Assembly (NCBI GenBank): GCA_006226565.1
Contig: SBGO01000334.1
Location: 359-64,358 of the forward strand
Length of the DNA: 64,000 nucleotides
Origin: Deltaproteobacteria bacterium
GTDB lineage: Bacteria > Myxococcota_A > UBA9042 > PHBI01
Reading direction: 5' to 3'
In this document: one piece after another, positions 37,656 through 64,000 of the stretch
How the letters are laid out: every line of letters starts with the position of its first letter
How positions within the stretch are numbered: the first letter of the stretch is position 1
Notes under the pieces: generated by a model
The model's database searches: none
Seen by the model: only the letters and a program-made list of their open reading frames with translations
What the model was told of the DNA's origin: nothing
Program-made: the position numbers and the translations under genes

Positions 37656-38346
37656 GACGCGCGTCACCGGCTGCTCCGTGCGCGGCCCCGCCCACGTTCG
37701 CGACGGCTCGCCCGGGCAGGACGCCTGGTCGGCCGTCGCGGAGCCCGTCGCCTTCGCCGTCGCGTGCGACGGGATGGGGAGCCGCCCCCTCGCCCACGAG
37801 GGAGCCCGCGCCGCGACTCGGGCAGCGCTGCGGGCGTGGCGTCTGTGGCGTCGGTCGAACGCAGGCAGCCCCGAAGATCTCGTGCGCCTCATCGAGGTCC
37901 TGTGGCGTCTCGACCTCGGCGGGATCGCCCCCGCCGAGGCCTGCACGACGTGCCTCGTCTACGCCGAGGACCTCCACGGCCGGGCCGTGGTCGCACAGCT
38001 CGGCGACGGGCTCATCGTGCGACGCTCGCCGGACGGCGCTGTCACGACACATCCATCGCGGAAGCTCGACTTCGGGACCACCCACGCGCTCGGCGCCCCG
38101 CACACCCTCGCGGACTGGTCCTTGGCCGTCGCCCCGCCGCTCGCGCCGGGAGAGTCGCTGCTCCTCGCGACCGACGGCGTCTCCGAGGACCTCCTCCGCG
38201 ATCGGCTCGACGGCCTCATGCGCTGGCTCCACGCCGAGCTCGACAGCCGGCGGGCCCCCCATCACTGGCTCCGCCGGGAGCTCCACCGCTGGCCGGTCGC
38301 TCACCACGGCGACGACAAGACCCTCGTCATGCTGAGGAGATCATGA
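37648..38346 (+). CDS. PP2C-family Ser/Thr protein phosphatase
   Basis: ORF 37648..38346 overlaps the vWA gene by 8 nt. PP2C motifs are VACDGMGS, LLLATDGVSE and DDKTLVML. Confidence 0.75.
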   Translation: MSETRVTGCSVRGPAHVRDGSPGQDAWSAVAEPVAFAVACDGMGSRPLAHEGARAATRAALRAWRLWRRSNAGSPEDLVRLIEVLWRLDLGGIAPAEACTTCLVYAEDLHGRAVVAQLGDGLIVRRSPDGAVTTHPSRKLDFGTTHALGAPHTLADWSLAVAPPLAPGESLLLATDGVSEDLLRDRLDGLMRWLHAELDSRRAPHHWLRRELHRWPVAHHGDDKTLVMLRRS

Positions 38347-44433: not shown

Positions 44434-46962
44434 ATGACCAAGCCGCGCAAGCACCCGAAGTCCCGTCCGCAGCCCAGCCCGAAGAGCGCCGAGAAGAGCG
44501 CGTCGACCGAAGAGGTCGCCGAGGTCGAGACGATCGAGGCAGAGGCAGCCGCCCTGACCGGGTCGCTCGGCGCCCCCCCTGCGCCCGCGGAGCCGCAGAG
44601 CACCGACGTCGCGCTCGGCACGCTGGTGGCCCGCGCTGCGAAGGCCCTCGAGGAGCTCAAGGGGCACCTCGCCACGGCGAAGACGACCCGCGACGCAGCC
44701 GAGCGCCGGGCCAGGCAGGTCGCGGAGGAGGCGGACGCGTTGCAGGCCGAGCGGACCGCGCTCGAGGAGGCTCGACGCGCCGCCGAGTCTCGGGACGCCA
44801 GCCTCGCCGAGCGCGAGGCGTCCGTCGTGGCGCGGGAGCTCGACGCCGAGCGCGGATTCCTCGCGCACAAGGCGGAGATCCTCGGGGGCCTCGAGGCGGA
44901 CGTGAGCGCGCTCCGCGCCCAGCGCACGGCGCTCGCCGACGAGCTGCGGGGGCGCCGAGAGAGCGCGGAGGAGGAGGCGCGCAAGAAGGTGGAGGCGCAC
45001 GAGCGCAAGTGGGCCGACGCGCAGAAGAAGCGGAGCGAGCACGCGGCGAAGGCGCGCCTGGAGCTCGACGAGGCGCTCGCTCGCGACCGTGAGACCGGCC
45101 TCGCCGAGACCCGCAAGAAGCTCCAGGAGGAGCGAGAGCGGGTGCGTGCAACCCTGGACGCGGAGCGGTCAGCCCTCGATGCGGAGATCATGGCACGGCA
45201 CGGCGCGCTGCAGGCCCACTCGGACGCCCTCGACACGCGCGAGCGGGAGCTTCGGATCACCGAGCGTGACCTCCTCGTCGATCAGGACCTCATGAAAGAG
45301 GAGCGCGAGGCCCTCGACAAGAAGGTCGCCCGCCTCGTGGCGGAGTCGACCGAGCAGCTCCGGCACGAGCTCGCGAGCGCGACCACGCTGCTGAAGGAGG
45401 CGCGGGCTCAGCGTGATGGCTACTGGGCCGACCTCGAGGCCCGACGCGAGCTGGACCGCCGCTTCGGCGGACGAACGCCCGAGGAGATCCTGGCCCACCT
45501 CCAGCACGTCGAGCGGGAGCGTGACGAGCTGACGCGCCAGCTCCGCGAGCGCCCCGACGAGCGCGCGGCGACGCGGCTCGCCAACCTCGAGCGCGAGCGC
45601 TCCGACTGGCACGACCAGCGCGCGAGCCTCGAGGTGGATCTCGCCAACGCGCGCTCCGAGCTGAGCACCCGGCGCATCGCGGCCATCGAGCTCGAGGGCC
45701 TGCGGCGGGAGAAGGAGGCCCTGCGCACGACGAACGCGCTGCTCGACCAGGCGCTCTCCGAGCTCGACGCCAAGGTCACGGAGCTCACCCACCAGGACGA
45801 CAAGCGCAACCCGATGACCGCCCTCACGGCCCTGGACGCCGACGAGGTTCTCCAGCTGCCGCGTCGCACGGTCGCGCCGCTGCACGGCGCAACGCCGGAC
45901 CTGCGCGCGTTCGCGGAGGATCTGCGTCACCGCATCGCCCATGGTGTCGAGGGGCGGACCCTCTACTACACGGCGGAGGACATCCGAGCGTTCCTCGGCG
46001 GCCTCGCGATGACGCAGCTCATGCTCCTCCAGGGCATCTCCGGGACGGGGAAGACGAGCCTGCCGCTCGCCTTCGCGAGCGCGGTCGGGGGCGACGTGGA
46101 GGTCGTCGAGGTGCAGGCGGGCTGGCGCGACCGACAGGACCTGGTCGGCTACTACAACGCCTTCCACAAGCACTACTACGCGACGAGCTTCCTGCAGGCG
46201 CTCTACCGGGCGGGCACGCCGGCGAACAAGGACCGCGTCTTCCTGATGGTCCTCGACGAGATCAACCTGTCCCGGCCCGAGCAGTTCTTCGCCGACTTCC
46301 TGTCCGCGCTGGAGCAGCCGACGGAGAAGCGCCGCCTCACGCTGGTCAACGACCCGATCACGGCCGCGCCGAAGCTCCTCGTGGACGGTCGCCACTTGCC
46401 GATCCCGCCGAACGTGTGGTTCGTCGGGACGGCCAACCACGACGAGACGACCGTGGCGTTCGCGGACAAGACCTACGATCGGGCCCACGTCATGGAGATG
46501 CCGCGGAACACCGACGCAGCGCGCTTCGAGGTCGAGCACAAGAACGGCCGCGGCACCATCTCGCACCAGGGGCTCATCGACGCCTTCGCCGCCGCCGCGG
46601 CCAAGCGGAGCAACGAGGTCGAGCACGCGACGCAGTGGCTGCGCCAGGCGCCGTTCGCCGAGACCCTCGGGCGTCGCTTCCGGGTCGGCTGGGGCAACCG
46701 CCTCGAGCAGCAGCTGGGGCGCTACCTCCCCGTCATCGTCGAAGCCGGGGGCAGCGTGGGTGAGGCGATGGATCACCTCCTCGTGACGAAGGTCTTCCGC
46801 AAGCTCGCGGACCGGCATGACGTGCGGGCGGAGGCGCTCGGCACCCTCAAGGACGAGCTCCTCACGACCTGGCTGGACCTCGACAAAGCTCACGGCCCCG
46901 AGCGCTGCGCGGCGCTCCTCGACCGCGAGATCGAGGCGAAGCTGGGGGAGGATCTGGCTTGA
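44434..46962 (+). CDS. McrB-like AAA+ GTPase/ATPase with an about 480-aa N-terminal coiled-coil region
   Basis: ORF 44314..46962. ATG at 44434 (MTKPRKHPK) is preceded by AAGGAAAG. The AAA region has LLQGISGTGKTS (Walker A), LMVLDEINLSRPEQFFADFLSALE (a McrB-type DEIN...F..L..LE Walker B plus sensor) and FVGTANHDE. The upstream half is highly charged (heptad-like ER/EA/AL repeats). Confidence 0.65.
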   Translation: MTKPRKHPKSRPQPSPKSAEKSASTEEVAEVETIEAEAAALTGSLGAPPAPAEPQSTDVALGTLVARAAKALEELKGHLATAKTTRDAAERRARQVAEEADALQAERTALEEARRAAESRDASLAEREASVVARELDAERGFLAHKAEILGGLEADVSALRAQRTALADELRGRRESAEEEARKKVEAHERKWADAQKKRSEHAAKARLELDEALARDRETGLAETRKKLQEERERVRATLDAERSALDAEIMARHGALQAHSDALDTRERELRITERDLLVDQDLMKEEREALDKKVARLVAESTEQLRHELASATTLLKEARAQRDGYWADLEARRELDRRFGGRTPEEILAHLQHVERERDELTRQLRERPDERAATRLANLERERSDWHDQRASLEVDLANARSELSTRRIAAIELEGLRREKEALRTTNALLDQALSELDAKVTELTHQDDKRNPMTALTALDADEVLQLPRRTVAPLHGATPDLRAFAEDLRHRIAHGVEGRTLYYTAEDIRAFLGGLAMTQLMLLQGISGTGKTSLPLAFASAVGGDVEVVEVQAGWRDRQDLVGYYNAFHKHYYATSFLQALYRAGTPANKDRVFLMVLDEINLSRPEQFFADFLSALEQPTEKRRLTLVNDPITAAPKLLVDGRHLPIPPNVWFVGTANHDETTVAFADKTYDRAHVMEMPRNTDAARFEVEHKNGRGTISHQGLIDAFAAAAAKRSNEVEHATQWLRQAPFAETLGRRFRVGWGNRLEQQLGRYLPVIVEAGGSVGEAMDHLLVTKVFRKLADRHDVRAEALGTLKDELLTTWLDLDKAHGPERCAALLDREIEAKLGEDLA

Positions 46963-48968
46963 AGCTGCGCCCTCGACTCGCGCTCCCTTCCGCGCCGAAT
47001 GAGCCCCCTCCGAGGGCGCTGCTCTGCGACGCCTGGACGATCCACGGGCAGCGAACCAGCGGCGAGGCCGGCGCCTACCCGGGGCCGGTCGTCGGGAACT
47101 GGCCGGACGACCTGGAGACCGACGCCGCGCAGCGGCTCTCCGAAGCCGTCGGGAGCGAAGCCGGCTGGGAGACGCTCGCGGCGACCCCGGCGATCGCGCG
47201 GAAGCTCAGCGAGCGAGCGCGGCTGCAGCCGCTCGACCGCGAGCTCCTTCGCCACCTCCATCATCTGCAGGAGGTCTGTCATCGCCCACGCCTCCACCTG
47301 CGCGTGGAGGACGAGCGTCTTCCCGTGGCGCGCGCGCGGCGATGGCCCACCCGGGCCGTGGCGGACCTCGTGTCCCACCCCGGAGACTGGGAACACCGCA
47401 CGCTGCGAAGCGTGCAGCCGCGACGCATCTTGGCGCGACAGATCGAGGACGAGTGGAACCTGTACGAGAACCGCGTGGCGGTCCGCCTCGTCGACCGGCT
47501 CCTCACCTATCTCGCGCGTCGGATCGAGGAGCTTCGGCGCATCGAGACGACGATGGCGCAGCGACGCGACCAGGGCGATCACACCAAGTCGTCACGGTGG
47601 CGCGTCCACCGCATCATGACGGCCTGGGCCGAGAGCCTCGACGCCGACACCGAGCACGCGCTGAGCGACACCCAGCGCGCGCTTGCGCACGCGCAGCAGA
47701 AACTCCAGGCCCTGACCGACACCCCCCTCTACCGGCACATCCCGCTGCGGGCGACGGTCCCGCTGGCGCTCCAGCAGACGAACATCCTTTCCAACGACGC
47801 CCACTATCGCAAGGTCGCCGCGTTGTGGCGCGCGTGGTCCCGGCACGGCTACAAGAAGCCGGAGACGCGGCTTCAGCGCGAGCGTCGGCGCCAAGAGGAG
47901 GCGCACGCGTGGGACCGCTTCGTGCTGCACCTGGTCGCGCGCGCAGCGACAGCGCTGGGCTGGACTGCGAGCGGCGACGCGCCCGCGTGGCGGCTGGAGA
48001 AACCCGGAGCGACAGACGTGACGGTGGAGGTCTCCGAATCCGGAGCCGTGACGCTGCACGCGGGGGGGGCGGGCCGACTCGCCTTGGTGCCGCTCTGCGC
48101 CGTGCTCGAGTTTGCCGATGCGCAGGCCGTCGACGCTGCGCTCCAGCCCTGGAGTGACAGTGAGGTCGAGGTCGTCGGGATTCACGTCGGCGGCGTGGCC
48201 GGCAAGGTCGACGCGGACCGGGCGACGGGCTGGCGGTTCGGCGACCACGCTGTCCTCCTCCCGGCATCGCCGTGGGCGATCGACTCGGAGGAGCGTATGG
48301 CGCGGCTCCTCAATGGCTGGTTGGCCCGTCACGCGAGCCCGACGTACCCGGTCCACGTGGAGGCGCGAGCGCTCCCGCAGCCGCCTCCCTGGGAGTGGTT
48401 GATCAAGAACGATCAACACATTGTCGCGCTGCGCGCTCCGACACGACGCGAGCACCAAGACGCCACGACGTGGTGCCAGCGAGAGCAAACGAAGCTCGAG
48501 CGCGCCGCGGAGCAGGCACGAGCGGCCAAGCAGGCGTTCTCTCGCGCACCGCTCACCGCGATCGGCGTGTTGAGCGACCTGATCCACACCGCCGCCCGGC
48601 TCGAGGACCTCGCGTCGTGCCCGGTGTGTGGTGGACGCGGTCACGTCCACCCGCGCCCCGGCCGCGCACCTGACGGGAGCGACGCGACGTGGTGGGCGAG
48701 CTGTCCCGGCTGCGGCGCCGAGTGGGGCCTGCGTGCCTGCACCACCTGCGGTGACCGCTTTCCGGTCCTCTTCCCCCATCTCAGCCAAGAGACTCGGGCG
48801 AGCCTGGAAGGCCTCGCCGCTGCCGACTGGCCGGACCGCGCGCTCGGCGCGGATGCCTGGGCACAGCCGTGCCGCGGCGACTTCCCTCGACACGCCCGCT
48901 GCCCGACCTGCGGCAGCTGTTCGAGCGGCGAATGCCGACACTGCTCAGCGCCACCGGGAGGGCACTAA
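46959..48968 (+). CDS. Cys-rich partner protein of the McrB-like ATPase (possibly McrC/DUF2357-like N-terminus; several C-terminal CxxC zinc ribbons)
   Basis: ORF 46959..48968; the TTG start overlaps the upstream stop. The C-terminal CPVCGG...CPGCGAEW...CTTCGD...CPTCGSCSSGECRHC gives at least four CxxC pairs. I could not find a convincing PD-(D/E)xK motif. Confidence 0.45.
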   Translation: MKLRPRLALPSAPNEPPPRALLCDAWTIHGQRTSGEAGAYPGPVVGNWPDDLETDAAQRLSEAVGSEAGWETLAATPAIARKLSERARLQPLDRELLRHLHHLQEVCHRPRLHLRVEDERLPVARARRWPTRAVADLVSHPGDWEHRTLRSVQPRRILARQIEDEWNLYENRVAVRLVDRLLTYLARRIEELRRIETTMAQRRDQGDHTKSSRWRVHRIMTAWAESLDADTEHALSDTQRALAHAQQKLQALTDTPLYRHIPLRATVPLALQQTNILSNDAHYRKVAALWRAWSRHGYKKPETRLQRERRRQEEAHAWDRFVLHLVARAATALGWTASGDAPAWRLEKPGATDVTVEVSESGAVTLHAGGAGRLALVPLCAVLEFADAQAVDAALQPWSDSEVEVVGIHVGGVAGKVDADRATGWRFGDHAVLLPASPWAIDSEERMARLLNGWLARHASPTYPVHVEARALPQPPPWEWLIKNDQHIVALRAPTRREHQDATTWCQREQTKLERAAEQARAAKQAFSRAPLTAIGVLSDLIHTAARLEDLASCPVCGGRGHVHPRPGRAPDGSDATWWASCPGCGAEWGLRACTTCGDRFPVLFPHLSQETRASLEGLAAADWPDRALGADAWAQPCRGDFPRHARCPTCGSCSSGECRHCSAPPGGH

Positions 48969-49077
48969 GCCGAGAGAACCCGCGCCCGGAGCCCTCCGCA
49001 CCGCTCGTCCGTGTAGGCTGGACGGAGGCAGGCGCGTGGGCCATTGTCGCCGTTGTCCACGCGGACGGGAGCACGCG

Positions 49078-52000
49078 GTGTCGCTGAAGCCAGGTTTGTA
49101 CGACCTTCCCGTGACCCGCGCGGTCGCTCGCGCCCTCGAATCGCTCGCGGTCGAGCTCAGGCAGGTCGAAGACGTCGAAGCTGACGAGCTGCCGCTCATG
49201 CTCGCCCGACACCTTCAGCGTCGCCTGGTCCATGCGTTCGGCGCAATTCCCCGGGACGAGCGAAGCACCGAGGCCGTCGAACTCGCAAATCGCCTCCTCG
49301 CAGACGTTCAGGAGCGGTGGCCGCGCGCCGGGCACGACGCAGAGGACGAGGTCGTAGCGCCTGCGCGCAAGCTCCTCGCCGTCGCGGCACCGGCGATTGT
49401 GCCCCACGTCCCGGAGCGCCCCGCCATCCCCCTCGCGACGAGCGACCTGCTCGTCAACGGCCACATGGACAAGGCGGTCGGCCCCGAGCTGCGCCGCGAG
49501 CTCGCCTCCGCCGACCGCGTGGACCTCCTCTGCTCGTTCATCAAGTGGTCGGGCCTTCGTCTCCTCGAAGACGCGCTGAAGGAGCTGCTCGCGCGCCGCC
49601 CGCGCAGCCTCCGCGTCCTGACGACCGCGTACATGAGCGCGACCGAGCGCCGCGCCCTCGACGCTCTGGTAGCGCTTGGTGCCGATGTCCGCGTCTCATA
49701 CGACACGGCGCGGACGCGCCTGCACGCCAAGGCGTGGCTCCTGCATCGCGAGAGCGGCTTCTCGACCGCCTTCGTCGGCTCGTCGAACCTATCGGCCGCC
49801 GCGCTGCTCGATGGCCTCGAGTGGAACGTCCGCCTCTCCCAGGTCGATAACGGCCCCATCCTCGAGAAGTTCGAGGCGACCTTCGACCAGTACTGGGGCG
49901 ACACCGAGTTTCAGCCCTACGACCCGACTACCTTCGACGCCGCGCTCGTGACGGAGCCCGCGGGGCCCACCCCGTCGCTGCTCATGCTCGACATCGAGCC
50001 ACGTCCCCACCAACAGGAGATCCTCGACGCCCTCGCCGCCGAGCGGACGCACGGCCACCACCGAAACCTCGTCGTGGCGGCGACCGGCACCGGCAAGACC
50101 ATCGTCGCCGCGCTCGACTATCGACGCCTCCGACGCGAGCTCCCTCGCGCGCGGCTCCTCTTCGTCGCCCACCGCGAGGAGATCCTCACCCAGAGCTTGC
50201 TCCTCTTCCGCGTCGCCCTCCGCGACGGCGCGTTCGGCGAGCTCCTCGTCGGCCGCGACCACGCCGCACGATGGGACCACGTCTTTGCATCGATCCAGTC
50301 GCTCCACGCGGACCGGCTCGCCGACCTGCCCAGGGACCAATTCGACGTCGTCATCGTCGACGAGTTCCACCACGCCGCCGCGGACACCTACACGCGCCTC
50401 CTCGAGCACTTCACGCCGCGCGTGCTGCTGGGTCTGACGGCGACCCCCGAGCGCGCTGACGGCCGCTCGGTGCTCGGCTGGTTCGACGGCCGCGTCGCCT
50501 CGGAGCTCCGGCTGTGGAAGGCGCTCGATCAGGGCCTCTTGAGCCCCTTCCACTACTTTGGCGTCGGCGGCGCGCCGGACATCAGCTCCGAGCGCCTGTG
50601 GGTCCGCGGCCGCTACGACCTTTCCAAGCTCGCCAACGTCTACACGGCCAACCACGTCTTCGCGCTCCGCGTCCTCCAGGAGGTCGAGCACAAGGTCACG
50701 GACATCGGGAAGATGCGCGCGCTCGGCTTCTGCGTGGACATCGCCCACGCCGAGTTCATGGCCGAGCAGTTCGGCAAGCGCGGCGTTCCTTCGCTGGCGG
50801 TCAGCGCCAAGACGTCTAAGTCGGGCCGCCGAGGCGCGCTCGAGGCGCTGCGAGACGGCACGATTCGCGTGCTGTTCACCGTCGACCTCTTCAACGAGGG
50901 CGTCGACCTCCCCGACGTCGACACCGTCATCTTCCTCCGCCCCACCGACAGCGCGACCGTGTTTCTCCAGCAGCTCGGTCGAGGGCTGCGACGATCGCGT
51001 GACAAGGCGTGCTTGACGGTGCTCGACTTCATCGGTAACGCGCATCGCCGCTTCCGCTTCGACACGCGCTTTCGCGCCATCGTCGGCGGCACCCGCCGCG
51101 GGGTGCGGGAGCAGGTTGAGCAGGGATTCCCGTCACTTCCAAGTGGCTGCAACATCCAGCTCGACCGCGAGGCGACGCGCGCGGTCCTCGACAATATCAA
51201 GCACGCGCTCGGCCTCGGTCGCCGCGGGCTCGTCGACGACCTGCGTCAACTGACCCAAGAACGGGGAAACGTCGATCTGGACACATTCCTACGCGAGTCG
51301 GGCGTAGACCTCGAGGACCTCTACACGTCGAAGAGCGGCGGATGGTGCTTCACCCGACTCAGACGGGAAGCGGGCGTCATCCCTGCCCCCGGCGACGGCG
51401 ACGCTGACGCCGAGCGCAACGAGCAGGTCGAGCGTGCCTACGGCCGCCTGCTGCACCTCGACGATAGCTGGCGACTCGAAGGGCTGCGGCGACTCCTCGC
51501 TCATGCCATCCCACCGTCAGCCGATCCGAGCGATGCGCTCCAGCGAGCCCTCTTCGTGTACCTCGGCGACATGCGCCGCCCGTTGACCGAGATGCAGAGC
51601 GCTTTCGACCACCTCTGGCGAAACGCCGACCTTCTCGATGAGCTCCGGCAATTGTTGGCGCTGCTCTACGACCGCACTCGGCGACTGACGACGCCGCTCT
51701 TCGGCGGCGGGCTCGACGCGCCGCTACAAGTCCATGCGACCTACAGCCTCGACGAGGTGATGGCGCTGGTGGACGAGCGCAACAGCAAGGGCGGCATTCA
51801 GCGCATTCAGACGGGCGTCTACTACCTCGAGGCGGCACGAACCGACTTGTTCTTCGTCACGCGCGAGAAGAGCGAGAAGCACTACACCCCGACGACGCTC
51901 TACAAGGACTATCCGCTGAGCACGCGACGGTTTCATTGGGAGAGCCAGTCCACCTGCCACGCGGGAACAAAGACGGGGCGACGCTACACGACGCTGGCCC

Positions 52001-52197
52001 GCGGGGGGGACAACCAAGCGCTCATGTTCCTTCGCCAGCGGCGGCACGACGATCGCGGTGAGACGATGCCGTACACTCTACTTGGCCGCTGCTACTACGA
52101 ATCCCACACGGAGGAACGCCCCATGGAGATCGTCTGGGCGCTCGAGCACCCGATTCCAGCGGCATTCTACCAGGAGATCAAGGTCGCGGCGGGGTAG
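49078..52197 (+). CDS. PLD-family (HxK) nuclease / SF2 DEAH-type helicase / C-terminal DUF3427-like domain fusion
   Basis: This covers about 1039 codons of ORF 48628..52197 from GTG 49078; the start is uncertain. The PLD motif is RLHAKAWLLHRESGFSTAFVGSSNLS (HxK...GSxN). Helicase motifs are VVAATGTGKT, VVIVDEFHH, GLTATPER and TVDLFNEGVDLPDVDTVIFLRPTDS...QQLGRGLRR. Its 3' end overlaps the convergent gene by 20 nt. Confidence 0.7.
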   Translation: MSLKPGLYDLPVTRAVARALESLAVELRQVEDVEADELPLMLARHLQRRLVHAFGAIPRDERSTEAVELANRLLADVQERWPRAGHDAEDEVVAPARKLLAVAAPAIVPHVPERPAIPLATSDLLVNGHMDKAVGPELRRELASADRVDLLCSFIKWSGLRLLEDALKELLARRPRSLRVLTTAYMSATERRALDALVALGADVRVSYDTARTRLHAKAWLLHRESGFSTAFVGSSNLSAAALLDGLEWNVRLSQVDNGPILEKFEATFDQYWGDTEFQPYDPTTFDAALVTEPAGPTPSLLMLDIEPRPHQQEILDALAAERTHGHHRNLVVAATGTGKTIVAALDYRRLRRELPRARLLFVAHREEILTQSLLLFRVALRDGAFGELLVGRDHAARWDHVFASIQSLHADRLADLPRDQFDVVIVDEFHHAAADTYTRLLEHFTPRVLLGLTATPERADGRSVLGWFDGRVASELRLWKALDQGLLSPFHYFGVGGAPDISSERLWVRGRYDLSKLANVYTANHVFALRVLQEVEHKVTDIGKMRALGFCVDIAHAEFMAEQFGKRGVPSLAVSAKTSKSGRRGALEALRDGTIRVLFTVDLFNEGVDLPDVDTVIFLRPTDSATVFLQQLGRGLRRSRDKACLTVLDFIGNAHRRFRFDTRFRAIVGGTRRGVREQVEQGFPSLPSGCNIQLDREATRAVLDNIKHALGLGRRGLVDDLRQLTQERGNVDLDTFLRESGVDLEDLYTSKSGGWCFTRLRREAGVIPAPGDGDADAERNEQVERAYGRLLHLDDSWRLEGLRRLLAHAIPPSADPSDALQRALFVYLGDMRRPLTEMQSAFDHLWRNADLLDELRQLLALLYDRTRRLTTPLFGGGLDAPLQVHATYSLDEVMALVDERNSKGGIQRIQTGVYYLEAARTDLFFVTREKSEKHYTPTTLYKDYPLSTRRFHWESQSTCHAGTKTGRRYTTLARGGDNQALMFLRQRRHDDRGETMPYTLLGRCYYESHTEERPMEIVWALEHPIPAAFYQEIKVAAG

Positions 52198-55100
52198 CGG
52201 CCGTGTCGATTTGTTCCACCAGAACGAGGGCCCAGCCGGTATCGATCCAACGGGTTGAGGCCTTAGGCGTACCGTGGAGGTAGCGGAGGTGGTTGACGAG
52301 GGCTTCGTCGAGCGGGGCGTTGCGGCGCTTGGCCTCGTTGCGAGCGTAGAGGACCCATGCGAGGTCGGTCAGGGAGACGGTACGCTCGGCAAAGCCGTCG
52401 GGGCCGCCGTCGATGCGGAGACCACCCTGGGCGGCGCGCCCAACGATGTGGAGATGCTTGTCGTCGGTGACGAGCTCGGTGCCCGGTGGGTGTTCCTCGA
52501 GAAGCTGGGTGACGAGGCGAACGGCCGCCTCGAGCCACTCGGGTGGTAGCCGTCGAGAGGCGCTCCGCCCCCTGCCCAACGCGCGCCAGGTCGTGAAGTC
52601 GACATCGGGGATCGCCCATTGCGCGTCGTTCGGCAGAAAGCCTCCGACGCCCAGGAAGCGCCAGGGCGCGTCGCTGGCACCTCGTGCGAGGACGAACGCG
52701 GTCTCGCCTGGGCGAGGCCGGACTCGACGACTCGGGTGGACAACACGGTCTGGGTCGGCGAGAGCCCCCTGCCCTTCGACCAACACGAACAGGTGACCGT
52801 CGACCCTCTGGGCGGGCGCGCTCGGAGGCGCCGAGAGAGCGAAGGTCGCTGCGAGGTCATCCTCGGGCACCACTGACCCGACTTCCGGCGCGAGAGACTC
52901 CGGCCGCACGACGTCGACGAGCAGCGCGACCGGCTCATCACCCGGCCGAGCCGGCATCGGAGCGTGCTCGGGGTTGTCGCTGGCGAAGACAAATCCCGCG
53001 GCCGTCTGCTCCAGTCGCTTGATGTGATAGGTCTGGGTCTCGTCGTCATGCGAACGGGCCACCAAGACGACGCGATTCAGCAGGCGCGCACGCGACTCCC
53101 CCCGCGCCCAGCGCATCACCAGCCAATCCCCGTCACGGATGTCCCGTGACCACGGGATGGCGCGGCCCGACATCGAGTCGCCAGACGCTCGCACCGCAAA
53201 GCACGACTCGCGGTCGAAGTCGCCAGGAAGCGCGACCTCGTCCGCCTCGATTCCGCCTGCGTCGTAGCCCGCTGGCGACCACCCCGCCGCCGCCTGTAGG
53301 CTCGGAAACGCGATGAGTCGCCCACGACTCGGGAGCGGAATGACCGGCGCGTCGTCCGCCTCCACCGGGGTCACGTGCCAACCGTCCGGGCTCGGCGCAA
53401 ACCGCACACGGAAGCTCGTCCCTGAACGCCCGGCATCTGGCCCGAACCAGCCGCGCAACAAGTCCGGCAGTCGGTTCGCCGACGTTCCGACCGGGTGCGC
53501 CACGTTGACCGCAATCTTCGCGAACCGAAACACCCAGTGTCGCCCGTCCGGCGCGCGAACATCCGTCGGTCCCGACGGCAACCCCGGTGCGCGCTCGCGG
53601 TCCGGGAGCTTCAGGATTGGCCCCTGCGCGTTGTGGATGAGCTTGGCTTCGAAGGCAGTCCCCAACGACGCCGAGCCCTCGGCCGCGCGGCGCTGCCGAT
53701 AGCCCCACAGCCGATAGTCGACGAGCTCGCGCGTCATGGCCGTCAGCGCTTCCCGCGCCGACGATGGCACCGAAAACCTCGGCTCGAAGCGCGTCTCCGA
53801 CAGCCGGAACTGTGGCGTCTTGCCAGTCGTCCAATGCTCCAGCGGCCACTTCGTCCAGTAGGCTCGCCAAGCCTCGGCCGACGCGGTCCGCGGGTCGCCC
53901 AGTTCCTTCGCGCTGAGGTCTGCTTCCAGCTCAGGCGCGCGCAACATGATGGCGCGCGACCTCTCGCAGAGCGCCGAGACGTCCACGCCGCTCGCCAACG
54001 CGTCGAGGTCGACGAGCGCCTCGAGAGCGACCATCCTGAAGGACTTCGTCATCGACTCACGCCGCTCGACGGCACGCAGGAAGGCACCGGCCGCCGCCAG
54101 TGCCTCGCGCTCTCCGGGGGTCAGGTGCCCCTCCGACGCCACGAAGTCGAACCACCCCTCGAAGGACGTCAGACTTCGGGGATTGAACCCCTGGCGCGCC
54201 AGCTCGCCGATGCGCGGCCGTTCGCCGCGCAGCGCTACGCGGTCCCGATAGGCCCGGACCACCGCGTGGCGCGCCCCCGATGGAAGCAGGCGCCGGAGAA
54301 GGTCCTTGGCCTCGAGCGCGACATCGACGCTGCAGCCCGGCGGCAGCGATGCCGCCGTCCCGTCGAGCCATGCGCGCACCGACACCGGCCCGCCCGGGGC
54401 ACGTCCGAGATTCACGAGCGAGCGGACACGATCCAGGAAAACCCGGTGGTTGCCGACGAAGTCGATGACCGTCAGGCGCTCCTTCCCCGGTGCCTTGCGG
54501 AGTCCGCGCCCGAGCTGCTGCATGAAGATGACCGGCGACTCGGTCGGTCGAAGCATGACGACACGGTCGAGCGCTGGCAGATCGACCCCCTCGTTGAAGA
54601 GGTCGACGGTGACCACCGCCGTCACGGCGCCGTTCGCGAGCCCGCGCAGGGCATCGATCCGGTCCGCGCTGTTCGGGCCGGAATGGACGGACACCGCGGA
54701 GACGCCGCGCTCGGAGAGCCAGCGCGCTACGAAGTCGGCGTGGTCGATCGAGCAGCAGAACACCAACGACCGCTCACCCGGATGCGCCTGCCAGCCCTCC
54801 CAGAGTCGTTCCATCCGAGCGTGCGTCGCCACCGCGGCGGACAGCTCCGCCGGTTGGAAGCGCCCGCCCCGCCACGGGATCGGCTGATAGTCGACATTGT
54901 CGACCAGGCCGAAGTAGGCGAACGGCACCAGGTGTTCGAGGGCGATGCCGACCCCGATGTCCGCCTCGAGCGCCAGGTGGTCATCGAAGAGCCCGAGGAT
55001 GTCGCCACCATCTCCCCGCTCGGGTGTGGCCGTCAGCCCCAGCCGAAAGCGCGTGTCGAAGTGCTCGAGCACTCGACGATAGCTCTGGGCGTCCGCGTGG

Positions 55101-56545
55101 TGGACCTCGTCGACGACGAGGTAATCGAAGGCGCCACGTGGTATCCGACCGAGCTGCTCGGGCCGCGCCAGCTTCTGGATGGACGCGAAGACGACATCAC
55201 CTTCCAGGTTGTCGAAGGGACCCGCGAACCAGCCAAAGCGCGCGTCAGGAAGCACGCGCCGAAACGCGCTGGCCGCCTGACGCAGCAGCTCGTCTCGGTG
55301 CGCGATGAACAGGACACGCGGGGCGTGACCCAGCTCTCGCGCCATCGCATCGATATCGAACGCCGCCAGGAGCGTCTTGCCGAGACCGGTCGCCAGCACC
55401 ACAACAGCCCGGTCCCGATGCTCGGCGCGCGCCCTAGCAAGCGCCTCGAGAGCGTCGCCCTGAACATCCCGCGGCTTCGGCGGCGTGGTCTGCTCGGGGT
55501 TGACCTCCCCGTCCGGGCGGGGTCGCCCGGTCGCCCGAGCGCGTTCCGCGTAGGTCGCGAGCCACTCGTCGGTGAGCGGGGTAGCGACGCGCCACGAGCG
55601 CTCGAACGCCTCGAGCACCTCGGCGAACCCGACGGGGTCGGCCGTCCGATCCAGACGAAGGTTCCACTCGATGCCATCGGTCAGCGCCGCCCGAGAGATG
55701 TTCGAGCTACCGACGAACGCGACGTCCCGACGTCCGCCGAGGAAGACCCAGGACTTTGGGTGGAACGTCGCGGCATCGCGATAGTGCGCCGCCTCGACCA
55801 CACGGACGTCGAGCGCACCTCGCTCATCCGCAGCCTCCTCATCGAGGACCTCGGTGCGCACGAGGTCGAGGAGGCGCCGCAGCGCGTGGGCCTGGGTGAG
55901 ATTGAGGTAGTCGCCCGTGAGAATGCGGACAGTCGCGCCACGCGAAACCGCCAGGTGCAGGTCGGGCTCGAGCTCCCGGACCCCTGAGAGCATGGTGAAC
56001 GCAGCGAGGATCTGCACCTGACTCGCGGTGCGCAGGTACGGGCCGATGTGTGTGTAGAACGGATCGAGGCGGCCTCCCGTCGAGAGCCGCCGACCGCCGT
56101 CGCCTCGAGAGGCTGGCTGCGTCACCGCGAGGCGACGGGGGATGTGGCCCGCTCGCTTGTAGTTGCCCGCCTCGGGGATGACGAAACGGACACCGCCGCG
56201 TGGGTCGTCGACATCATCGCAGTAGCGCGGGATGACGTGGACGTGCAGGTGCATAACGGTCTGCCCGGCAGGCTCGCCCACATTGATGCCGATGTTGTAG
56301 CCGTCGGGTCGAAGCTCCTCGTCGAGCTCGCGCTTCACCTCCTCGACGAGGTCGAAGACCGCACGTTGCTCGTCCGGCGTGGTCTCGAACCAGCTCGCGA
56401 CCAGCCGCTTCGGAATGACGAGGGTATGACCGGGGCTGACGGAATATCCATCGCGGATGGCGAACGCGAGCGCGTTCGACGCCACCCACTCGGACTCGGA
56501 GCGCTCGAGGAAGACTGACGTCGGCGGGGCGGAGTCCTGGTTCAT
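52178..56545 (-). CDS. multidomain fusion: HIT (histidine-triad) nucleotide hydrolase, then PLD HxK nuclease, then SF2 helicase, then an unknown region, then an S24 LexA-like autopeptidase domain, then a C-terminal domain
   Basis: ORF 52178..56581; ATG at 56545 (MNQDSAPPTSVFLERSES). HIT motif VMHLHVHVIPR at about 56230-56251. PLD motif FHPKSWVFLGG...GSSNIS. Helicase motifs are VVVLATGLGKT, YLVVDEVHH, GLTATPER and TVDLFNEGVDLP...QQLGRGLRK. S24 motifs are SGDSMSG (Ser, 53171-53182) and YHIKRLE (Lys, about 53018-53020), which compare with LexA GDSM and VKRL. Confidence 0.75.
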   Translation of the reverse strand: MNQDSAPPTSVFLERSESEWVASNALAFAIRDGYSVSPGHTLVIPKRLVASWFETTPDEQRAVFDLVEEVKRELDEELRPDGYNIGINVGEPAGQTVMHLHVHVIPRYCDDVDDPRGGVRFVIPEAGNYKRAGHIPRRLAVTQPASRGDGGRRLSTGGRLDPFYTHIGPYLRTASQVQILAAFTMLSGVRELEPDLHLAVSRGATVRILTGDYLNLTQAHALRRLLDLVRTEVLDEEAADERGALDVRVVEAAHYRDAATFHPKSWVFLGGRRDVAFVGSSNISRAALTDGIEWNLRLDRTADPVGFAEVLEAFERSWRVATPLTDEWLATYAERARATGRPRPDGEVNPEQTTPPKPRDVQGDALEALARARAEHRDRAVVVLATGLGKTLLAAFDIDAMARELGHAPRVLFIAHRDELLRQAASAFRRVLPDARFGWFAGPFDNLEGDVVFASIQKLARPEQLGRIPRGAFDYLVVDEVHHADAQSYRRVLEHFDTRFRLGLTATPERGDGGDILGLFDDHLALEADIGVGIALEHLVPFAYFGLVDNVDYQPIPWRGGRFQPAELSAAVATHARMERLWEGWQAHPGERSLVFCCSIDHADFVARWLSERGVSAVSVHSGPNSADRIDALRGLANGAVTAVVTVDLFNEGVDLPALDRVVMLRPTESPVIFMQQLGRGLRKAPGKERLTVIDFVGNHRVFLDRVRSLVNLGRAPGGPVSVRAWLDGTAASLPPGCSVDVALEAKDLLRRLLPSGARHAVVRAYRDRVALRGERPRIGELARQGFNPRSLTSFEGWFDFVASEGHLTPGEREALAAAGAFLRAVERRESMTKSFRMVALEALVDLDALASGVDVSALCERSRAIMLRAPELEADLSAKELGDPRTASAEAWRAYWTKWPLEHWTTGKTPQFRLSETRFEPRFSVPSSAREALTAMTRELVDYRLWGYRQRRAAEGSASLGTAFEAKLIHNAQGPILKLPDRERAPGLPSGPTDVRAPDGRHWVFRFAKIAVNVAHPVGTSANRLPDLLRGWFGPDAGRSGTSFRVRFAPSPDGWHVTPVEADDAPVIPLPSRGRLIAFPSLQAAAGWSPAGYDAGGIEADEVALPGDFDRESCFAVRASGDSMSGRAIPWSRDIRDGDWLVMRWARGESRARLLNRVVLVARSHDDETQTYHIKRLEQTAAGFVFASDNPEHAPMPARPGDEPVALLVDVVRPESLAPEVGSVVPEDDLAATFALSAPPSAPAQRVDGHLFVLVEGQGALADPDRVVHPSRRVRPRPGETAFVLARGASDAPWRFLGVGGFLPNDAQWAIPDVDFTTWRALGRGRSASRRLPPEWLEAAVRLVTQLLEEHPPGTELVTDDKHLHIVGRAAQGGLRIDGGPDGFAERTVSLTDLAWVLYARNEAKRRNAPLDEALVNHLRYLHGTPKASTRWIDTGWALVLVEQIDTAATPPRP

Positions 56546-56644
56546 CCGACGCAGAATCGGGCCCCATCCCGCTGGCGTCAATCCGTCCCTGGAACAGCGA
56601 GGGCTGCTGGGCGACCGGGCCGGTGGGCCCGGTCGCCCACGACG

Positions 56645-57463
56645 TCAGTAGACCAGGCGCATGAGCTTGTCCCAGGTGGCCTCGCGGCGGGGGATGTCGC
56701 CGAGGACGTCGTAGACGCCGTGGAGCTCGGCCCAGAGGAGGGAGCGGCCGAGGAGGTCGGGACAGTGCTGGAGGCCGCGGAGGAGGACGTCGCTCGCCTG
56801 GCGGGCAGCGTCGGGGCTCTCGGCGCCGCCCAGGAGGGGCTCGCAGTGGAGGCGGCTCGTCGCGAGCCACGCGAAGACGTCGCCGGGAGAGGACTCGCGC
56901 CAGCGGTCGATGAAACGCGCGGCCTCGGGACGGCGCCCGAGACGGAGGAGCGCCATCGCGTGCAGGCGCTGGTGCTCCGAGCGCTCCGCCGGGAACCACG
57001 ACGAGAGCGGCCCGAGCAGGCTCTCCGTCACCTCGAGCAGGCACTCCGACCACGCCGGCACGACCCCGTGCCCCTGCGTCGGCGGCAAGCCGACCACCAT
57101 CGCCAGCTGACCGATGAACGCCGTGACGAACCGCTCGACGCGCTCGGACGCCGCCGCGACGTCGTCGAAGGACGGCCCGGACGGGCGCCCCACCAACGCC
57201 ACGAGCCCGCGCCACGCGTCGGTCCACGCTTCGTTCGGACCGGCACCCACCACCCGGCCCGCCTCACTCACGCGCCACCCGCGCTCGATGTCGCGCTCCA
57301 GCGCCGCCAGCGCCGCCCGCTCCGCCTCCGCCCACCGCCGCTCGCCGACGGGACGACGCCCCGCCCGAGGCCCGCGGCGCAGGCCTGCCGCCGGCAGGCG
57401 CGCCGACACCACGACCATCTCCTTGCCCCGACTCCGCCGCCTCGCGCCCTTCCTACCCTTCAT
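56645..57463 (-). CDS. hypothetical protein (272 aa, basic N-terminus), first gene of the minus-strand sigma54 operon
   Basis: The last 272 codons of ORF 56645..57934. ATG at 57463 (MKGRKGARRR) is preceded by GGAGAGGTGGA. No motif was recognised. Confidence 0.5.
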   Translation of the reverse strand: MKGRKGARRRSRGKEMVVVSARLPAAGLRRGPRAGRRPVGERRWAEAERAALAALERDIERGWRVSEAGRVVGAGPNEAWTDAWRGLVALVGRPSGPSFDDVAAASERVERFVTAFIGQLAMVVGLPPTQGHGVVPAWSECLLEVTESLLGPLSSWFPAERSEHQRLHAMALLRLGRRPEAARFIDRWRESSPGDVFAWLATSRLHCEPLLGGAESPDAARQASDVLLRGLQHCPDLLGRSLLWAELHGVYDVLGDIPRREATWDKLMRLVY

Positions 57464-57515
57464 CGTCCACCTCTCCGGCTCGTGCGCGCCACCGCGGCGC
57501 CGCCGGCCCGCATCG

Positions 57516-57530
57516 CAAGCCCCATGCCAG
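57516..57530 (-). promoter_or_regulatory. sigma54-type -24/-12 promoter on the minus strand: TGGCAT-GGGGC-TTGC
   Basis: The plus strand reads GCAAGCCCCATGCCA, which is the reverse complement of TGGCATGGGGCTTGC. That is one mismatch from TGGCAC-N5-TTGC, with correct spacing. It lies 53-67 nt upstream of the ATG at 57463. Confidence 0.5.
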
Positions 57531-58430: not shown

Positions 58431-60533
<2,103 letters not shown>

Positions 60534-61684: not shown

Positions 61685-64000
61685 TCACGGCAGACGCTGC
61701 ACGCGCTCGACCGTCAGCGGCTCGTTGGCGACGCTCCCGGCCTCGCCGAAGCCGACCACGACCTTGTCGTCGTCGGTGATCGTGACCGACGCCGCGACGT
61801 CCGCCCACGGTCCCACCGGCGACCAGCTCGACTGCTGGATGGCCAGCGTGCCGTTCACCCGCGTCACCTTGAACCAGCGCTTGTCGGCGCCCGTCACCGG
61901 GGTCGGGTAGGTCCCGCGGAAGGTGCCCACGTAGCCGTCGGGGAAGCCCGTCGTCGTCAGCGTGCCCCAGTACGGTCCGCTGGCGTTGCTCGAGTAGCCG
62001 GTCAGGTCCCCGTGGGCGACCGTCGGCCCGTACAGCACGCCGAAGCCACGGTAGTCGTGGTTCCAGCGCGCCACGGCGATGAAGTCCTCGCCGCCGGCGA
62101 AGGTGCGGGCGAGGACCGCGCTGCTGTACGCGGGCGCCGTCGCGTCCTCGGGCGCCCACGAGCGCCCGCCGTTGGACAGGACGCCCTGCCCCGTGAAGAA
62201 GCCGGTCGTCACGTCGGACTGCACCGCCCCGAGGACCGGCGTCCCGCTCAGCTCGCGGCTGAACGACACGATGCTCAGCGGCGTCGCCTCGCCCGCCGAG
62301 TCGTTCCGGGCGGCGTGCCCCCAGCCGACGACGACCTGGTCGGTCGGCGCGATGTCCGCGTCCGCGACCATGTTCCACCACGGCCCGCGCGGGCTGTTGT
62401 ACGAGTAGCGCAGCGACAGCCGATCGAAGGCCCGCGCGTGGCGGAACCACCAGTTCGTCGTCGCCGTCGAGTTCGAGTCGTAGGGCGCCGGGTAGAGCCC
62501 GTAGAACGCCGCGTCGTAGCCCTTCGGGAAGCCGGTGTTGTCCACCGTGCCGAAGTATGGCCCGTACGCGTTGGCCGAGTAGCCGTCGTAGGCCGTGTGA
62601 TGGACCGTCGGCCCGTAGATGTAGCCGACGCCGCGGTACTTGTGGCCCCAGAGCGTGATGACGTCGAAGTCCTCGCCGGCCGCGAAGGTGCGCTGCAGCG
62701 TCGTGCTCTGATAGATGTTCTTCGGCTGGGCGTCGTCCCAGACGCGGCCCTCGGCGAGCAGGAGCCCGGTGTTCTCCGCGAACCCCGTGGTCCAGTCCAC
62801 GTACTGCCCCGGGAGGTCGTCGCAGACGTTGCCGCGCCCGTCGGTGTCGAAGTCGGCCTGGTTGGCGTTGGCCGTGACCGGGCAGTTGTCGGCCCAGTTG
62901 TAGACGCCGTCCCCGTCGAGGTCGAGGCGGTCCTGCGCCCAGATGAGGCGCCCGGAGCCCGCGCGCCCCGAGCAGCGGCAGCGGCAGGCGTTCTGCCGAC
63001 CGCCGCCCCCGACGTCGAAGGGACCGGCGCCGGCGCGGCTCCGACCGTCGTTGCGCGCGGTGGTACCGACGAGCTCGCCGAGGCGCCAGTAGCCGCTGGG
63101 CGTGCGCGCCGTGACCAGGGTCGCGTAGGGCTGCCCGGCCAGCTTGCCCTGGCGCGCGACGTCGTACAGGAGCCGGATGGTCTCGTCGGACAGCGTGTGA
63201 TGGAAGGTCGCGACCTCGTCGATCTCGCCCTCGAAGAAGCCCGCCGCGGGCGCGGGCGTCGCGGCCTTCGCGCCGATCGCGACCGCGCCCACCGGGACGT
63301 AGCCGGGGTCGGCGTCGGTCGGCTGCTCGCTGCTCGTCGTCTGGCTCCACGTGTAGAAGGCGCCGTCGACGTACAGGTAGAAGACGTTGGCGACCTTCGT
63401 CGCGACGACCTGGTGCCACTGTCCGTCGTTGAGCGGGACCGCCGCGTTCGAGCTGAGGGTCTTGCGCGTGCCCGCCGCGTTCTGGACGTTGAGCGTGACG
63501 CGGCCGGCGCCGCCGAGGGTCGCGTTCAGGATCAGTGCGATCTCGCCGGTCGAGCCGTCGCCCGGGTTCTCGGAGTAGAGGTAGCTGTCGGTGACCGCGG
63601 TCTCGGTGCGGAACCACAGCGAGACGCTCCAGACCCCGTAGTTGTTGTTCAGGTTCGAGCGCGCGGCGAGCTGCACCCCTTGCCCCACGCCGTCGAGCTG
63701 CACGGCGCCGTCTGCGTCCCCGGCGAGCGCGCCGCTCACGACCAGCGGATCGCCGAGGTAGTCGCCGTCGAGGACCGCCGCCGGGGTCGGGGGCACGTCG
63801 AGGACCAGCGTCCCGCCCGCTCCGGCGCCGCCGCCGCCCTCCTCGGTGCCGGTGCTGCCCGGCGTGCAGCCGCCGTTGGTGGCGTAGTTGCCGCGCACGC
63901 TGATGAGGCCCTGGTTCGAGAGCGTCGCCGCGCGCAGGTAGATGACGCCGCCGCCCGCGCCGCCAGCGCCGCCGCTCGAGGCGTCGCCGCCGACCCCCGA
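61685..64000 (-). CDS. large secreted protein with a LamG/concanavalin-like domain, a thrombospondin type-3 Ca-binding repeat, and two tandem about 150-aa repeat modules; N-terminus lies beyond the window end
   Basis: ORF 61685..63898, with the frame still open at 64000. SLWFRTE...VANVFYLYVDGAF is LamG-like. DLDGDGVYNWADNCPVTANANQADFDTDGRGNVCDD is a TSP3 repeat. RTFAAGEDFDVITLWGHKYRGVGYIYGPTVHHTAYDGYS and RTFAGGEDFIAVARWNHDYRGFGVLYGPTVAHGDLTGYS mark the internal duplication. Confidence 0.65.
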   Translation of the reverse strand, partial: SGVGGDASSGGAGGAGGGVIYLRAATLSNQGLISVRGNYATNGGCTPGSTGTEEGGGGAGAGGTLVLDVPPTPAAVLDGDYLGDPLVVSGALAGDADGAVQLDGVGQGVQLAARSNLNNNYGVWSVSLWFRTETAVTDSYLYSENPGDGSTGEIALILNATLGGAGRVTLNVQNAAGTRKTLSSNAAVPLNDGQWHQVVATKVANVFYLYVDGAFYTWSQTTSSEQPTDADPGYVPVGAVAIGAKAATPAPAAGFFEGEIDEVATFHHTLSDETIRLLYDVARQGKLAGQPYATLVTARTPSGYWRLGELVGTTARNDGRSRAGAGPFDVGGGGRQNACRCRCSGRAGSGRLIWAQDRLDLDGDGVYNWADNCPVTANANQADFDTDGRGNVCDDLPGQYVDWTTGFAENTGLLLAEGRVWDDAQPKNIYQSTTLQRTFAAGEDFDVITLWGHKYRGVGYIYGPTVHHTAYDGYSANAYGPYFGTVDNTGFPKGYDAAFYGLYPAPYDSNSTATTNWWFRHARAFDRLSLRYSYNSPRGPWWNMVADADIAPTDQVVVGWGHAARNDSAGEATPLSIVSFSRELSGTPVLGAVQSDVTTGFFTGQGVLSNGGRSWAPEDATAPAYSSAVLARTFAGGEDFIAVARWNHDYRGFGVLYGPTVAHGDLTGYSSNASGPYWGTLTTTGFPDGYVGTFRGTYPTPVTGADKRWFKVTRVNGTLAIQQSSWSPVGPWADVAASVTITDDDKVVVGFGEAGSVANEPLTVERVQRLP

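Follow-up and report, generated by a model that had tools for sequence, protein, structure and literature searches.

The DNA analysed here, a stretch of 64,000 nucleotides (nt) from a metagenome-assembled genome named "Deltaproteobacteria bacterium" (contig SBGO01000334.1, positions 359 to 64,358; hereafter "the window"), carries two convergent genes, A (49078–52197, + strand) and B (52178–56545, − strand). According to our analysis, they encode two independent and anciently diverged enzymes of the SauUSI family, of which the second would be switched by cleaving itself, the overlap of the two genes being incidental; to this reading as a whole, we assign a probability of roughly 0.55. As far as its sequence tells, A is an ordinary new member of the known SauUSI family, i.e., a single-chain Type IV restriction enzyme. 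B, on sequence and model evidence, appears to represent an undescribed subfamily, in which the SauUSI core is supplemented by a HIT domain, a B3-like DNA-binding domain and an S24 peptidase domain, the latter inserted between the motor/B3 part and the reader. Both the S24 autoprotease, which is intact and of the LexA type, and the probable, divergent SRA-type reader behind it had been overlooked in the initial annotation of this DNA. We found no description linking an S24 peptidase with a SauUSI-like or any other Type IV enzyme in the literature, although the searchable library is incomplete and subscription journals could hold one; with the same incomplete coverage of subscription journals, the HIT-PLD-helicase architecture was not found described in defence either, and the eLife 2020 paper on conflict systems mentions DUF3427 helicases only in another context.

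Both open reading frames (ORFs) lie where the initial annotation had placed them and encode proteins of 1039 (A) and 1455 (B) amino acids; a separate gene prediction for this contig (Logan SRR8389942) reproduces their boundaries. At the NCBI, A is TNF33000.1 ("DUF3427 domain-containing protein"), a protein of 1114 amino acids that starts 75 codons further upstream than in the Logan call and in the initial annotation (1039 amino acids), while B is TNF33001.1 ("HIT domain-containing protein"). With the additional codons (48853–49077), the longer version of A would share 116 nt with the gene before it. The two genes converge at 52.19 kb, where A ends on a TAG (52195–52197) and B on a TGA (reverse complement of 52178–52180). 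Read directly in the sequence, the overlap of the two coding regions (52178–52197) is exactly 20 nt long and involves the last six codons of A and the last six codons of B.

The similarity between the two proteins is not confined to generic helicase motifs. A pairwise BLASTP comparison aligns 632 amino acids of A with B at 38% identity (E = 9e-87), the similarity beginning upstream of the PLD domain and extending past helicase motif VI, and the PLD segments alone are 36% identical (E = 9e-20). Because the resemblance reaches this far, A and B are, at the sequence level, true paralogs of one family. As initially annotated, their translations both contain HxK...GSxN PLD motifs (LHAK...FVGSSNLS in A; FHPK...FVGSSNIS in B) and shared helicase blocks (GLTATPER; TVDLFNEGVDLP...QQLGRGLR), and they differ in their accessory domains: a Pfam scan recovers PLDc_2, ResIII, Helicase_C and DUF3427 in A, and HIT, PLDc_2 (sub-threshold), ResIII, Helicase_C and Peptidase_S24 in B. 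The best solved relative of both proteins is SauUSI (PDB 7CLG; E = 2e-76 for A and 4.1e-73 for B).

SauUSI, from Staphylococcus aureus, is the prototype of single-chain ATP-dependent Type IV enzymes (PMC3141236, PMC7913695). Briefly, its PLD nuclease is followed by a superfamily 2 (SF2) motor, then by a helical coupler and finally by a reader of the SRA fold that recognises 5-methylcytosine and 5-hydroxymethylcytosine (PMC7913695; PMC3141236; 10.1101/2025.10.16.682607). Engagement of this reader, or target-recognition domain (TRD), whose fold is that of SRA domains (PMC7913695), activates the ATPase and licenses cleavage, and the enzyme dimerises via its PLD domains (PMC7913695; 10.1101/2025.10.16.682607). 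Gene A (49078–52197, + strand) has the same architecture from end to end and adds an N-terminal extension of 110 amino acids. Residues 113–1031 of its 1039 match positions 15–936 of the 945 positions of the PADLOC model mREase_IV (PDLC03659; E = 1.9e-257). Its PLD (HKD) nuclease domain (residues 163–273, LHAK...GSSN; 49564–49896, + strand; Pfam PLDc_2, E = 9.2e-9) aligns with the HxK region of SauUSI, and its SF2 helicase-like ATPase (residues 306–660; 49993–51057, + strand; ResIII, E = 7.5e-38; Helicase_C, E = 5.7e-14) has intact motifs I, II, III and VI (GTGKT, DEFHH, TATPER and QQLGRGLR). Beyond the coupler follows DUF3427, the SRA-fold target-recognition domain of the SauUSI type (residues 837–1034; 51586–52179, + strand; E = 7.1e-16), which scores 58.7 bits against a Pfam cut-off of 27.7 bits. 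By the example of SauUSI, this reader would recognise a modified base and thereby turn on the SF2 motor, after which the dimeric PLD nuclease would cut the DNA.

Gene B (52178–56545, − strand) also matches the PADLOC mREase_IV model (E = 1.3e-94), and Pfam, PADLOC, a structural model and structure searches together give it the order HIT, PLD, SF2 motor, coupler, B3-like, S24, SRA-like and C-terminal alpha/beta domain. The HIT domain (residues 17–108; 56222–56497, − strand; Pfam E = 1.5e-22) is a predicted nucleotide hydrolase/transferase domain with an intact histidine triad (HLHVHVIPR), which is kept in every homolog of alignment A1 that has the N-terminus; its PDB matches are to HIT, Fhit and Ap4A-phosphorylase structures at about 1e-13, and it is closest to the Fhit/Ap4A-phosphorylase branch. 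The PLD nuclease domain (residues 187–318, FHPK...GSSN; 55592–55987, − strand) scores 23.2 bits, under the Pfam cut-off of 27 bits for PLDc_2, and is recognised by its similarity to the PLD domain of A. It is followed by the SF2 helicase-like ATPase (residues 357–702; 54440–55477, − strand; ResIII, E = 4.7e-35; Helicase_C, E = 1.1e-15), with the motifs GLGKT, DEVHH, TATPER and QQLGRGLR all present; the alignment with 7CLG spans residues 254–702. Next come a helical/winged-helix "coupler" (residues 740–955; 53681–54328, − strand), common to relatives with the HIT-PLD-helicase-DUF3427 architecture, and a B3-like beta domain of the DNA-binding pseudobarrel fold (residues 960–1075; 53321–53668, − strand). 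The latter is a fold-level, structural assignment, neither Pfam nor hhalign returning a match.

For the post-helicase part of B (716 residues), 78 homologs were collected, from which an AlphaFold model of this C-terminal half was computed (predicted local distance difference test score, pLDDT, of 89.9; predicted template modelling score, pTM, of 0.70). Structure searches with this model also matched winged-helix domains and SRA domains, and the C-terminal module, of which residues 1216–1455 were modelled at a pLDDT of 87.5, superposes best on the SauUSI chain. Residues ~1245–1325 (52571–52813, − strand) are thus likely to form a divergent SRA-like domain, presumably a reader of modified bases. 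The link of this module to SRA readers is one of modelled fold: against the DUF3427 of A, the C-terminal extension of B obtains an hhalign probability of about 1%, and no Pfam match at E-values up to 5. Behind it lies a C-terminal alpha/beta domain (residues ~1335–1444; 52214–52543, − strand) with a highly conserved motif (RYLEGTPK..TRWIDTGWA). A 97.7% hhalign match between the C-terminus of A and the beta domain of B was rejected as a self-match artefact, since the three-sequence "A" alignment held two HIT-PLD-helicase-DUF3427 proteins that were also in the B alignment. Compared with SauUSI, B follows the same PLD-SF2-coupler plan, with a presumed SRA-type reader behind it, and adds the HIT, B3-like and S24 domains and an extra C-terminal domain, whereas its SRA-like domain is too diverged to be recognised as Pfam DUF3427.

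The S24 domain of B (residues 1087–1210; 52916–53287, − strand; Pfam E = 4.5e-7) is of the LexA/CI/UmuD type and has the fold of the LexA/CI C-terminal domain. Its catalytic residues would be Ser1124 (in GDSM) and Lys1176 (in HIKRL), and its predicted scissile bond is Ala1087–Gly1088 (53282–53287, − strand), within the motif L-Q-A-A-A-G (residues 1083–1088). This motif, as L-x-A-A-A-G, is invariant in alignments A1 and A3, and among 23 homologs (31–55% identity) the other invariant columns are a phenylalanine, G-x-S-M (Ser1124), the D-G of D-G-D and Lys1176. We take Ala1087–Gly1088 to correspond to the LexA scissile bond Ala84–Gly85, and Ser1124/Lys1176 to the LexA dyad Ser119/Lys156. When genomic loci were aligned by tblastn, the Ala-Gly pair was found in 64 of the 73 loci matching the S24 domain, serine and lysine in 71 (the remaining two alignments stop short of both residues) and all of them together in 63, the loci missing the full set being mostly truncated alignments. 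A degenerate, non-catalytic S24 domain would not be expected to retain the dyad along with the site that it cuts; as judged from these conserved residues, the module is intact, LexA-like and under selection. The resemblance to LexA, lambda CI and UmuD includes the Ser-Lys dyad in GxSM and K motifs and an Ala-Gly scissile bond that precedes the serine by about 37 residues and in both cases parts an N-terminal, DNA-acting portion from the S24 domain. In B, however, this portion is a HIT-nuclease-motor of 1,086 residues instead of a helix-turn-helix (HTH) repressor, and further domains follow S24.

Relatives of B combine these modules in various ways. Many have the HIT-PLD-helicase-coupler-B3-DUF3427 layout without S24 (e.g., P0041), others of the same layout terminate directly after S24 (e.g., P0021, P0029–31, P0069), P0077 is a PLD-helicase-S24-DUF3427 protein (S24 at 837–943, then the DUF3427 core at 955–1105), and still others are PLD-helicase proteins, with or without HIT, that have the SRA-like C-terminal module but no S24 (P0109, P0124, P0136, P0155). 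A profile search with the C-terminal module yielded 259 matches among 1.84 billion representative proteins, and all those examined were PLD-helicase proteins. These varied combinations indicate that S24 is an optional insertion at the junction of motor and reader and that the SRA-like module is an alternative to DUF3427. The closest sister architecture to B is that of the HIT-PLD-helicase-DUF3427 proteins of metagenomes and metagenome-assembled genomes (P0041, P0051, P0054), uncharacterised proteins that share the HIT, PLD, motor, coupler and B3-like parts with B (30–40% identity) but have a standard DUF3427 end and no S24 insertion. In another metagenome protein (P0012, 1002 amino acids), a cold-shock domain (CSD; Pfam E = 1.4e-10) stands N-terminal to the C-terminal half of the helicase, which could reflect an error in gene calling or one more variant of the architecture.

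The distribution of B was examined by scanning one genome per species (GTDB) with alignment A3, which identified at least 104 loci and from which 80 were retained; the best genomic relative among them is 54% identical to B. Within Myxococcota, loci are found in Sorangium, Polyangium, Minicystis, Nannocystis, Archangium, Cystobacter, Myxococcus, Pyxidicoccus, Anaeromyxobacter, Kofleriaceae and Sandaracinaceae, and outside this phylum in Acidobacteriota (Holophagales, Thermoanaerobaculia) and Planctomycetota. None of the TPR, VWA, PP2C, 486-amino-acid and DUF2357 neighbours of the window was found beside the B homologs of these 80 loci (0/80 by tblastn for TPR), and when the flanking ORFs were clustered all against all, every family was confined to 8 or fewer of the 80, this lack of a recurrent neighbour indicating that B is a self-contained, single-gene system. 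Two loci may be rearranged or decaying copies: L062 (Anaeromyxobacter oryzae, 7857–14218), where two matches to the conserved C-terminal tail of B suggest a second partial copy downstream, and L076 (Neorhodopirellula pilleata, 6991–11419), where apparently only the C-terminal half of a B-like gene abuts an A-like gene on the opposite strand.

By analogy with LexA, CI and UmuD, we propose that B cleaves itself at Ala1087–Gly1088, which would part a HIT-nuclease-motor-B3 fragment from an S24-SRA-C-terminal fragment, and that this cleavage is probably stimulated by RecA filaments on single-stranded DNA (RecA-ssDNA) or by a comparable DNA-damage signal. Cleavage would then be an off-switch, i.e., a built-in, SOS-triggered "restriction alleviation" that spares the chromosome after DNA damage by the enzyme or otherwise. 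We lean toward inactivation because, in SauUSI, ATP hydrolysis and DNA cutting depend on the reader being engaged. This scheme builds on what was observed of the domains, of the conserved catalytic and scissile residues, and of where the family occurs and what lies beside it, whereas the self-cleavage itself, its trigger and direction, the modification on the substrate and the part played by the HIT domain are inferred.

Several points weigh against this scheme. Self-cleavage, its dependence on RecA and the direction of the switch in the B subfamily are drawn from analogy with better-known proteins. Many relatives in alignment A1 terminate right after S24 and have no reader, so that a detaching reader is not the whole story, and the scheme leaves the role of the HIT domain unexplained. 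Moreover, the adjacency of A-like and B-like genes, in about 10% of loci, hints at a functional or evolutionary linkage that two independent enzymes would not account for. Finally, when ten neighbours of B homologs from cultured genomes were inspected with PADLOC and Pfam, they turned out to be ordinary genes, including generic kinases, with no defence gene among them; the defence role of B is thus suggested by homology and not by context.

The main and serious alternative, which we consider improbable though less so than the other rivals below, is that S24 cleavage activates B. Under this hypothesis, the S24-SRA-C-terminal module would restrain the motor, and a RecA-stimulated cut during phage replication would free a modification-independent, B3-guided nuclease-translocase, resulting in an abortive-infection-like or late-acting defence. 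UmuD is indeed cleaved to its active form, UmuD', and several defence systems are activated by proteolysis, while LexA and CI are, on the contrary, inactivated by cleavage. The structural evidence is the same for both directions of the switch, but the many S24-terminal relatives without a reader fit a sensor or autoinhibitor better than a tether, and the B3-like domain would remain with the motor after cleavage. Against activation stands SauUSI itself, in which the reader is needed to start the ATPase (PMC7913695).

A second alternative, less probable again, is that A and B are functional partners, either as PLD-mediated heterodimers or in a division of labour where A cuts modified DNA and the S24-bearing B answers to the RecA-coated ends. 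The gene-neighbourhood survey bears directly on this point. Across the 80 loci, the only recurrent neighbour in distant lineages is a second PLD-helicase paralog, found adjacent in 9 (8 A-type proteins with DUF3427 and 1 HIT-B3 paralog), in Planctomycetota, Thermoanaerobaculia, Holophagales and Kofleriaceae, and the A-type partners are orthologous to the A of the window (39–57% identity). No unrelated neighbour family reaches more than 8 of the 80 loci. The adjacency of A-like and B-like genes is recurrent without being positional, as the pairs are in tandem (L012, L013, L016, L033), divergent (L019, L022, L024) or convergent (L050, with a gap of 34 nt, and L063, with a gap of 1.5 kb). SauUSI, for its part, works as a PLD-mediated dimer (PMC7913695), which makes heterodimers conceivable, yet A-type enzymes are known to act alone, as SauUSI does. 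About 90% of the B homologs (71 of the 80 loci) have no adjacent paralog. Where both flanks are 3.5 kb or longer (40 loci), 35–36 loci have no partner and 4–5 have one, which seems commoner than one would expect for unrelated genes. Clustering of defence genes or an old tandem duplication would account for the adjacency without any interaction.

The initial annotation had stressed the overlapping 3' ends and suggested that each of two sigma54 operons is transcribed into the other, in a possible antisense or co-regulation arrangement. As a regulatory device, this would subject A and B to antisense control or make their expression mutually exclusive. We find this very unlikely, and regard the 20-nt overlap as most likely incidental, i.e., as a result of close packing in stop-codon-poor DNA (the G+C content of the window is ~71%) instead of a regulatory device. 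The tail of A is conserved up to its stop codon (...QEIKVAAG in the window, LFQEVKVAAG in L019, LFDETKIAAG in L012), whereas the residues of B past its conserved ...TRWIDTGWALVL motif are 0–14 in number and of variable composition among homologs. Hence, the overlap brings together the natural end of A and a non-conserved run-on of B, as expected of end-to-end packing where stop codons are rare (70% G+C). None of the nine other pairs overlaps, and although L050 has the same convergent layout as the window, only 2 of the 9 are convergent. No stable RNA structure is predicted at the junction (z = +0.47 and −0.09 on the two strands), and scans for terminators and sigma70 promoters around the pair gave nothing above shuffled expectation. 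This lack of a terminator-like structure makes read-through into the partner gene physically plausible, but, given the non-conserved tail of B and the variable orientation between loci, the overlap is nonetheless best seen as incidental.

The promoters postulated for the two operons fare no better. Matches to the sigma54 −24/−12 element occur in the window at chance level (3 found for 2.45 expected), and none lies within 240 nt upstream of A or within 170 nt upstream of B, the good ones being far from both genes. It is true that two of them stand at the outer ends of the gene strings leading to A and B. The first (TGGCCCACGGCTTGCG; 36559–36574, + strand) follows an RtcR-like activator gene and heads the + strand string that ends in A, but it is 12.5 kb upstream of A, which itself begins 109 nt past the preceding gene. 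The second (TGGCATGGGGCTTGCG; 57514–57529, − strand) is located 52 nt upstream of a TPR-containing ORF of 272 amino acids (56645–57463, − strand; weak Pfam TPR_14) that precedes B. The 99-nt spacer between this ORF and B contains a perfect 14-bp G+C-rich hairpin without a T-run (GGGCGACCGGGCCC-ACCG-GGCCCGGTCGCCC; 56608–56639, − strand), the predicted RNA fold of which reaches −58.4 kcal/mol on 105 nt (z = −3.05). This hairpin, which could be a terminator or terminator-like structure, an attenuator, a processing site or a repeat element, parts B from the promoter-proximal TPR gene and argues against a simple co-transcription of the two. Altogether, what the initial annotation said of the pair itself, i.e., two related paralogs with differing accessory domains and a convergent overlap of 20 nt, stands, while the two sigma54 operons and the antisense or co-regulation arrangement are not supported, the latter having nothing beyond geometry in its favour.

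Equally improbable, and less likely than a role in restriction, is a function of B as an SOS-linked machine for DNA repair or end processing, in which an aprataxin-like HIT domain, a Tdp1-like PLD domain and a RadD/XPB-like helicase would be under LexA-style proteolytic control: HIT and PLD domains do both serve in DNA-end cleaning in eukaryotes, but the HIT domain of B belongs to the Fhit/Ap4A-phosphorylase branch and not to that of aprataxin; RadD and XPB are among the helicase matches of B, but its PLD-helicase core is much nearer to SauUSI (E = 4e-73) than to RadD (1e-23); S24 does tie B to the DNA-damage response, but the modelled C-terminal SRA fold is typical of modification-dependent nucleases and relatives exchange the SRA-like module for DUF3427; and, in cultured myxobacteria, ordinary genes surround the B homologs, but the loci from the one-per-species scan are scattered over part of the genera and species of these phyla, suggesting that the gene is accessory, and B lies within a defence island in this window.

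Among known enzymes, BfiI and R.NgoAVII also associate a PLD-family nuclease with B3-like DNA-binding, but, unlike B, they have no helicase motor, S24, SRA or HIT domain, and the B3 of B is a structural assignment. R.NgoAVII uses a separate ATPase subunit. Regarding the proposed switch, the nearest functional parallel is the alleviation of Type I restriction, where ClpXP degrades the HsdR subunit of EcoKI after DNA damage. The logic would be the same, in that damage-triggered proteolysis turns off a translocating enzyme and spares the chromosome, except that the protease is external in Type I systems and would be built into B.

Type IV enzymes form a major obstacle to the exchange of genes, and any new DNA modification that arises in the cell turns them into a danger to their own host. 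To our knowledge, apart from the ClpXP-dependent alleviation of Type I systems, little has been learned about what keeps enzymes of this kind in check. It is in this respect that B might matter most, as it could belong to a widespread and undescribed class of restriction enzymes with their own LexA-type autoprotease, in which RecA or a damage signal cuts the modified-base reader off the motor, an extrapolation that we put forward as tentative and possible rather than probable. If it were true, B would be the first restriction endonuclease gated in cis directly by the SOS signal, and S24 autoproteolysis would act on a large nuclease motor as well as on transcription factors and UmuD, so that the RecA signal and restriction activity would be physically connected in a direct and testable way. 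The outcome of cleavage would be either self-protection (restriction alleviation) or a non-specific nuclease as a last-resort defence, and the recurrent pairing of A-type with B-type enzymes could be a two-stage system, the RecA signal arising from the cuts of the first enzyme and in turn switching the second. Members of the family occur in cultured and genetically tractable myxobacteria (Myxococcus, Sorangium, Cystobacter, Nannocystis, Anaeromyxobacter), in which these predictions can be tested, and B-type enzymes may contribute to the poor transformability of some myxobacteria. The overlapping 3' ends are, by comparison, probably of no consequence.

In the window, the genomic context suggests that A and B stand at the end of an acquired defence island. 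The genes between ~28000 and 57500 have a G+C content at third codon positions (GC3) of 0.78–0.89, versus 0.92–0.98 for the genes on either side, which is consistent with horizontal acquisition; on the right-hand side, the drop ends at an oxidoreductase gene (58485–60533). The notion that the B family always lies within defence islands was dropped, as the neighbours sampled in cultured genomes are ordinary. Directly upstream of A lies a McrBC-like pair with a 4-nt overlap (44434–48968, + strand), composed of an AAA_5 NTPase of 842 amino acids (McrB-like; Pfam E = 2e-5; PADLOC PDC-M26A, E = 5.6e-41) and of a protein of 669 amino acids with a weak DUF2357 match; counting A and B, as many as three successive Type IV-like systems may thus be present in the island. 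This pair belongs to the packed string that follows the sigma54-like site at 36559, which successively includes a small ORF, a VWA protein, a PP2C phosphatase, a kinase, a MkoA-like SF1 helicase (1093 amino acids; PDLC03920, E = 8e-87), a protein of 486 amino acids, the McrB-like NTPase, the DUF2357 protein and then A.

The RtcR-like sigma54 activator (34681–36465, + strand; PADLOC PDLC01994, E = 3e-142) has a CARF-AAA-HTH architecture, and the tightly overlapping genes for the VWA protein, the PP2C phosphatase and the Ser/Thr kinase resemble the trio of the TerY-P triad, so that the region 34681–42961 (+ strand) looks like a candidate CARF-regulated conflict system of its own. Divergent from the activator, two ORFs of 670 and 634 amino acids (30750–34716, − strand) have no Pfam match, nor does the longer one have a PADLOC match; by their position, they could be the target operon of the RtcR-like regulator. 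Finally, an ORF of 737 amino acids with matches to Laminin_G_3 and to thrombospondin type 3 repeats (61685–63898, − strand), which is unrelated to the pair, resembles the secreted or surface proteins that are typically found in myxobacteria-like genomes.

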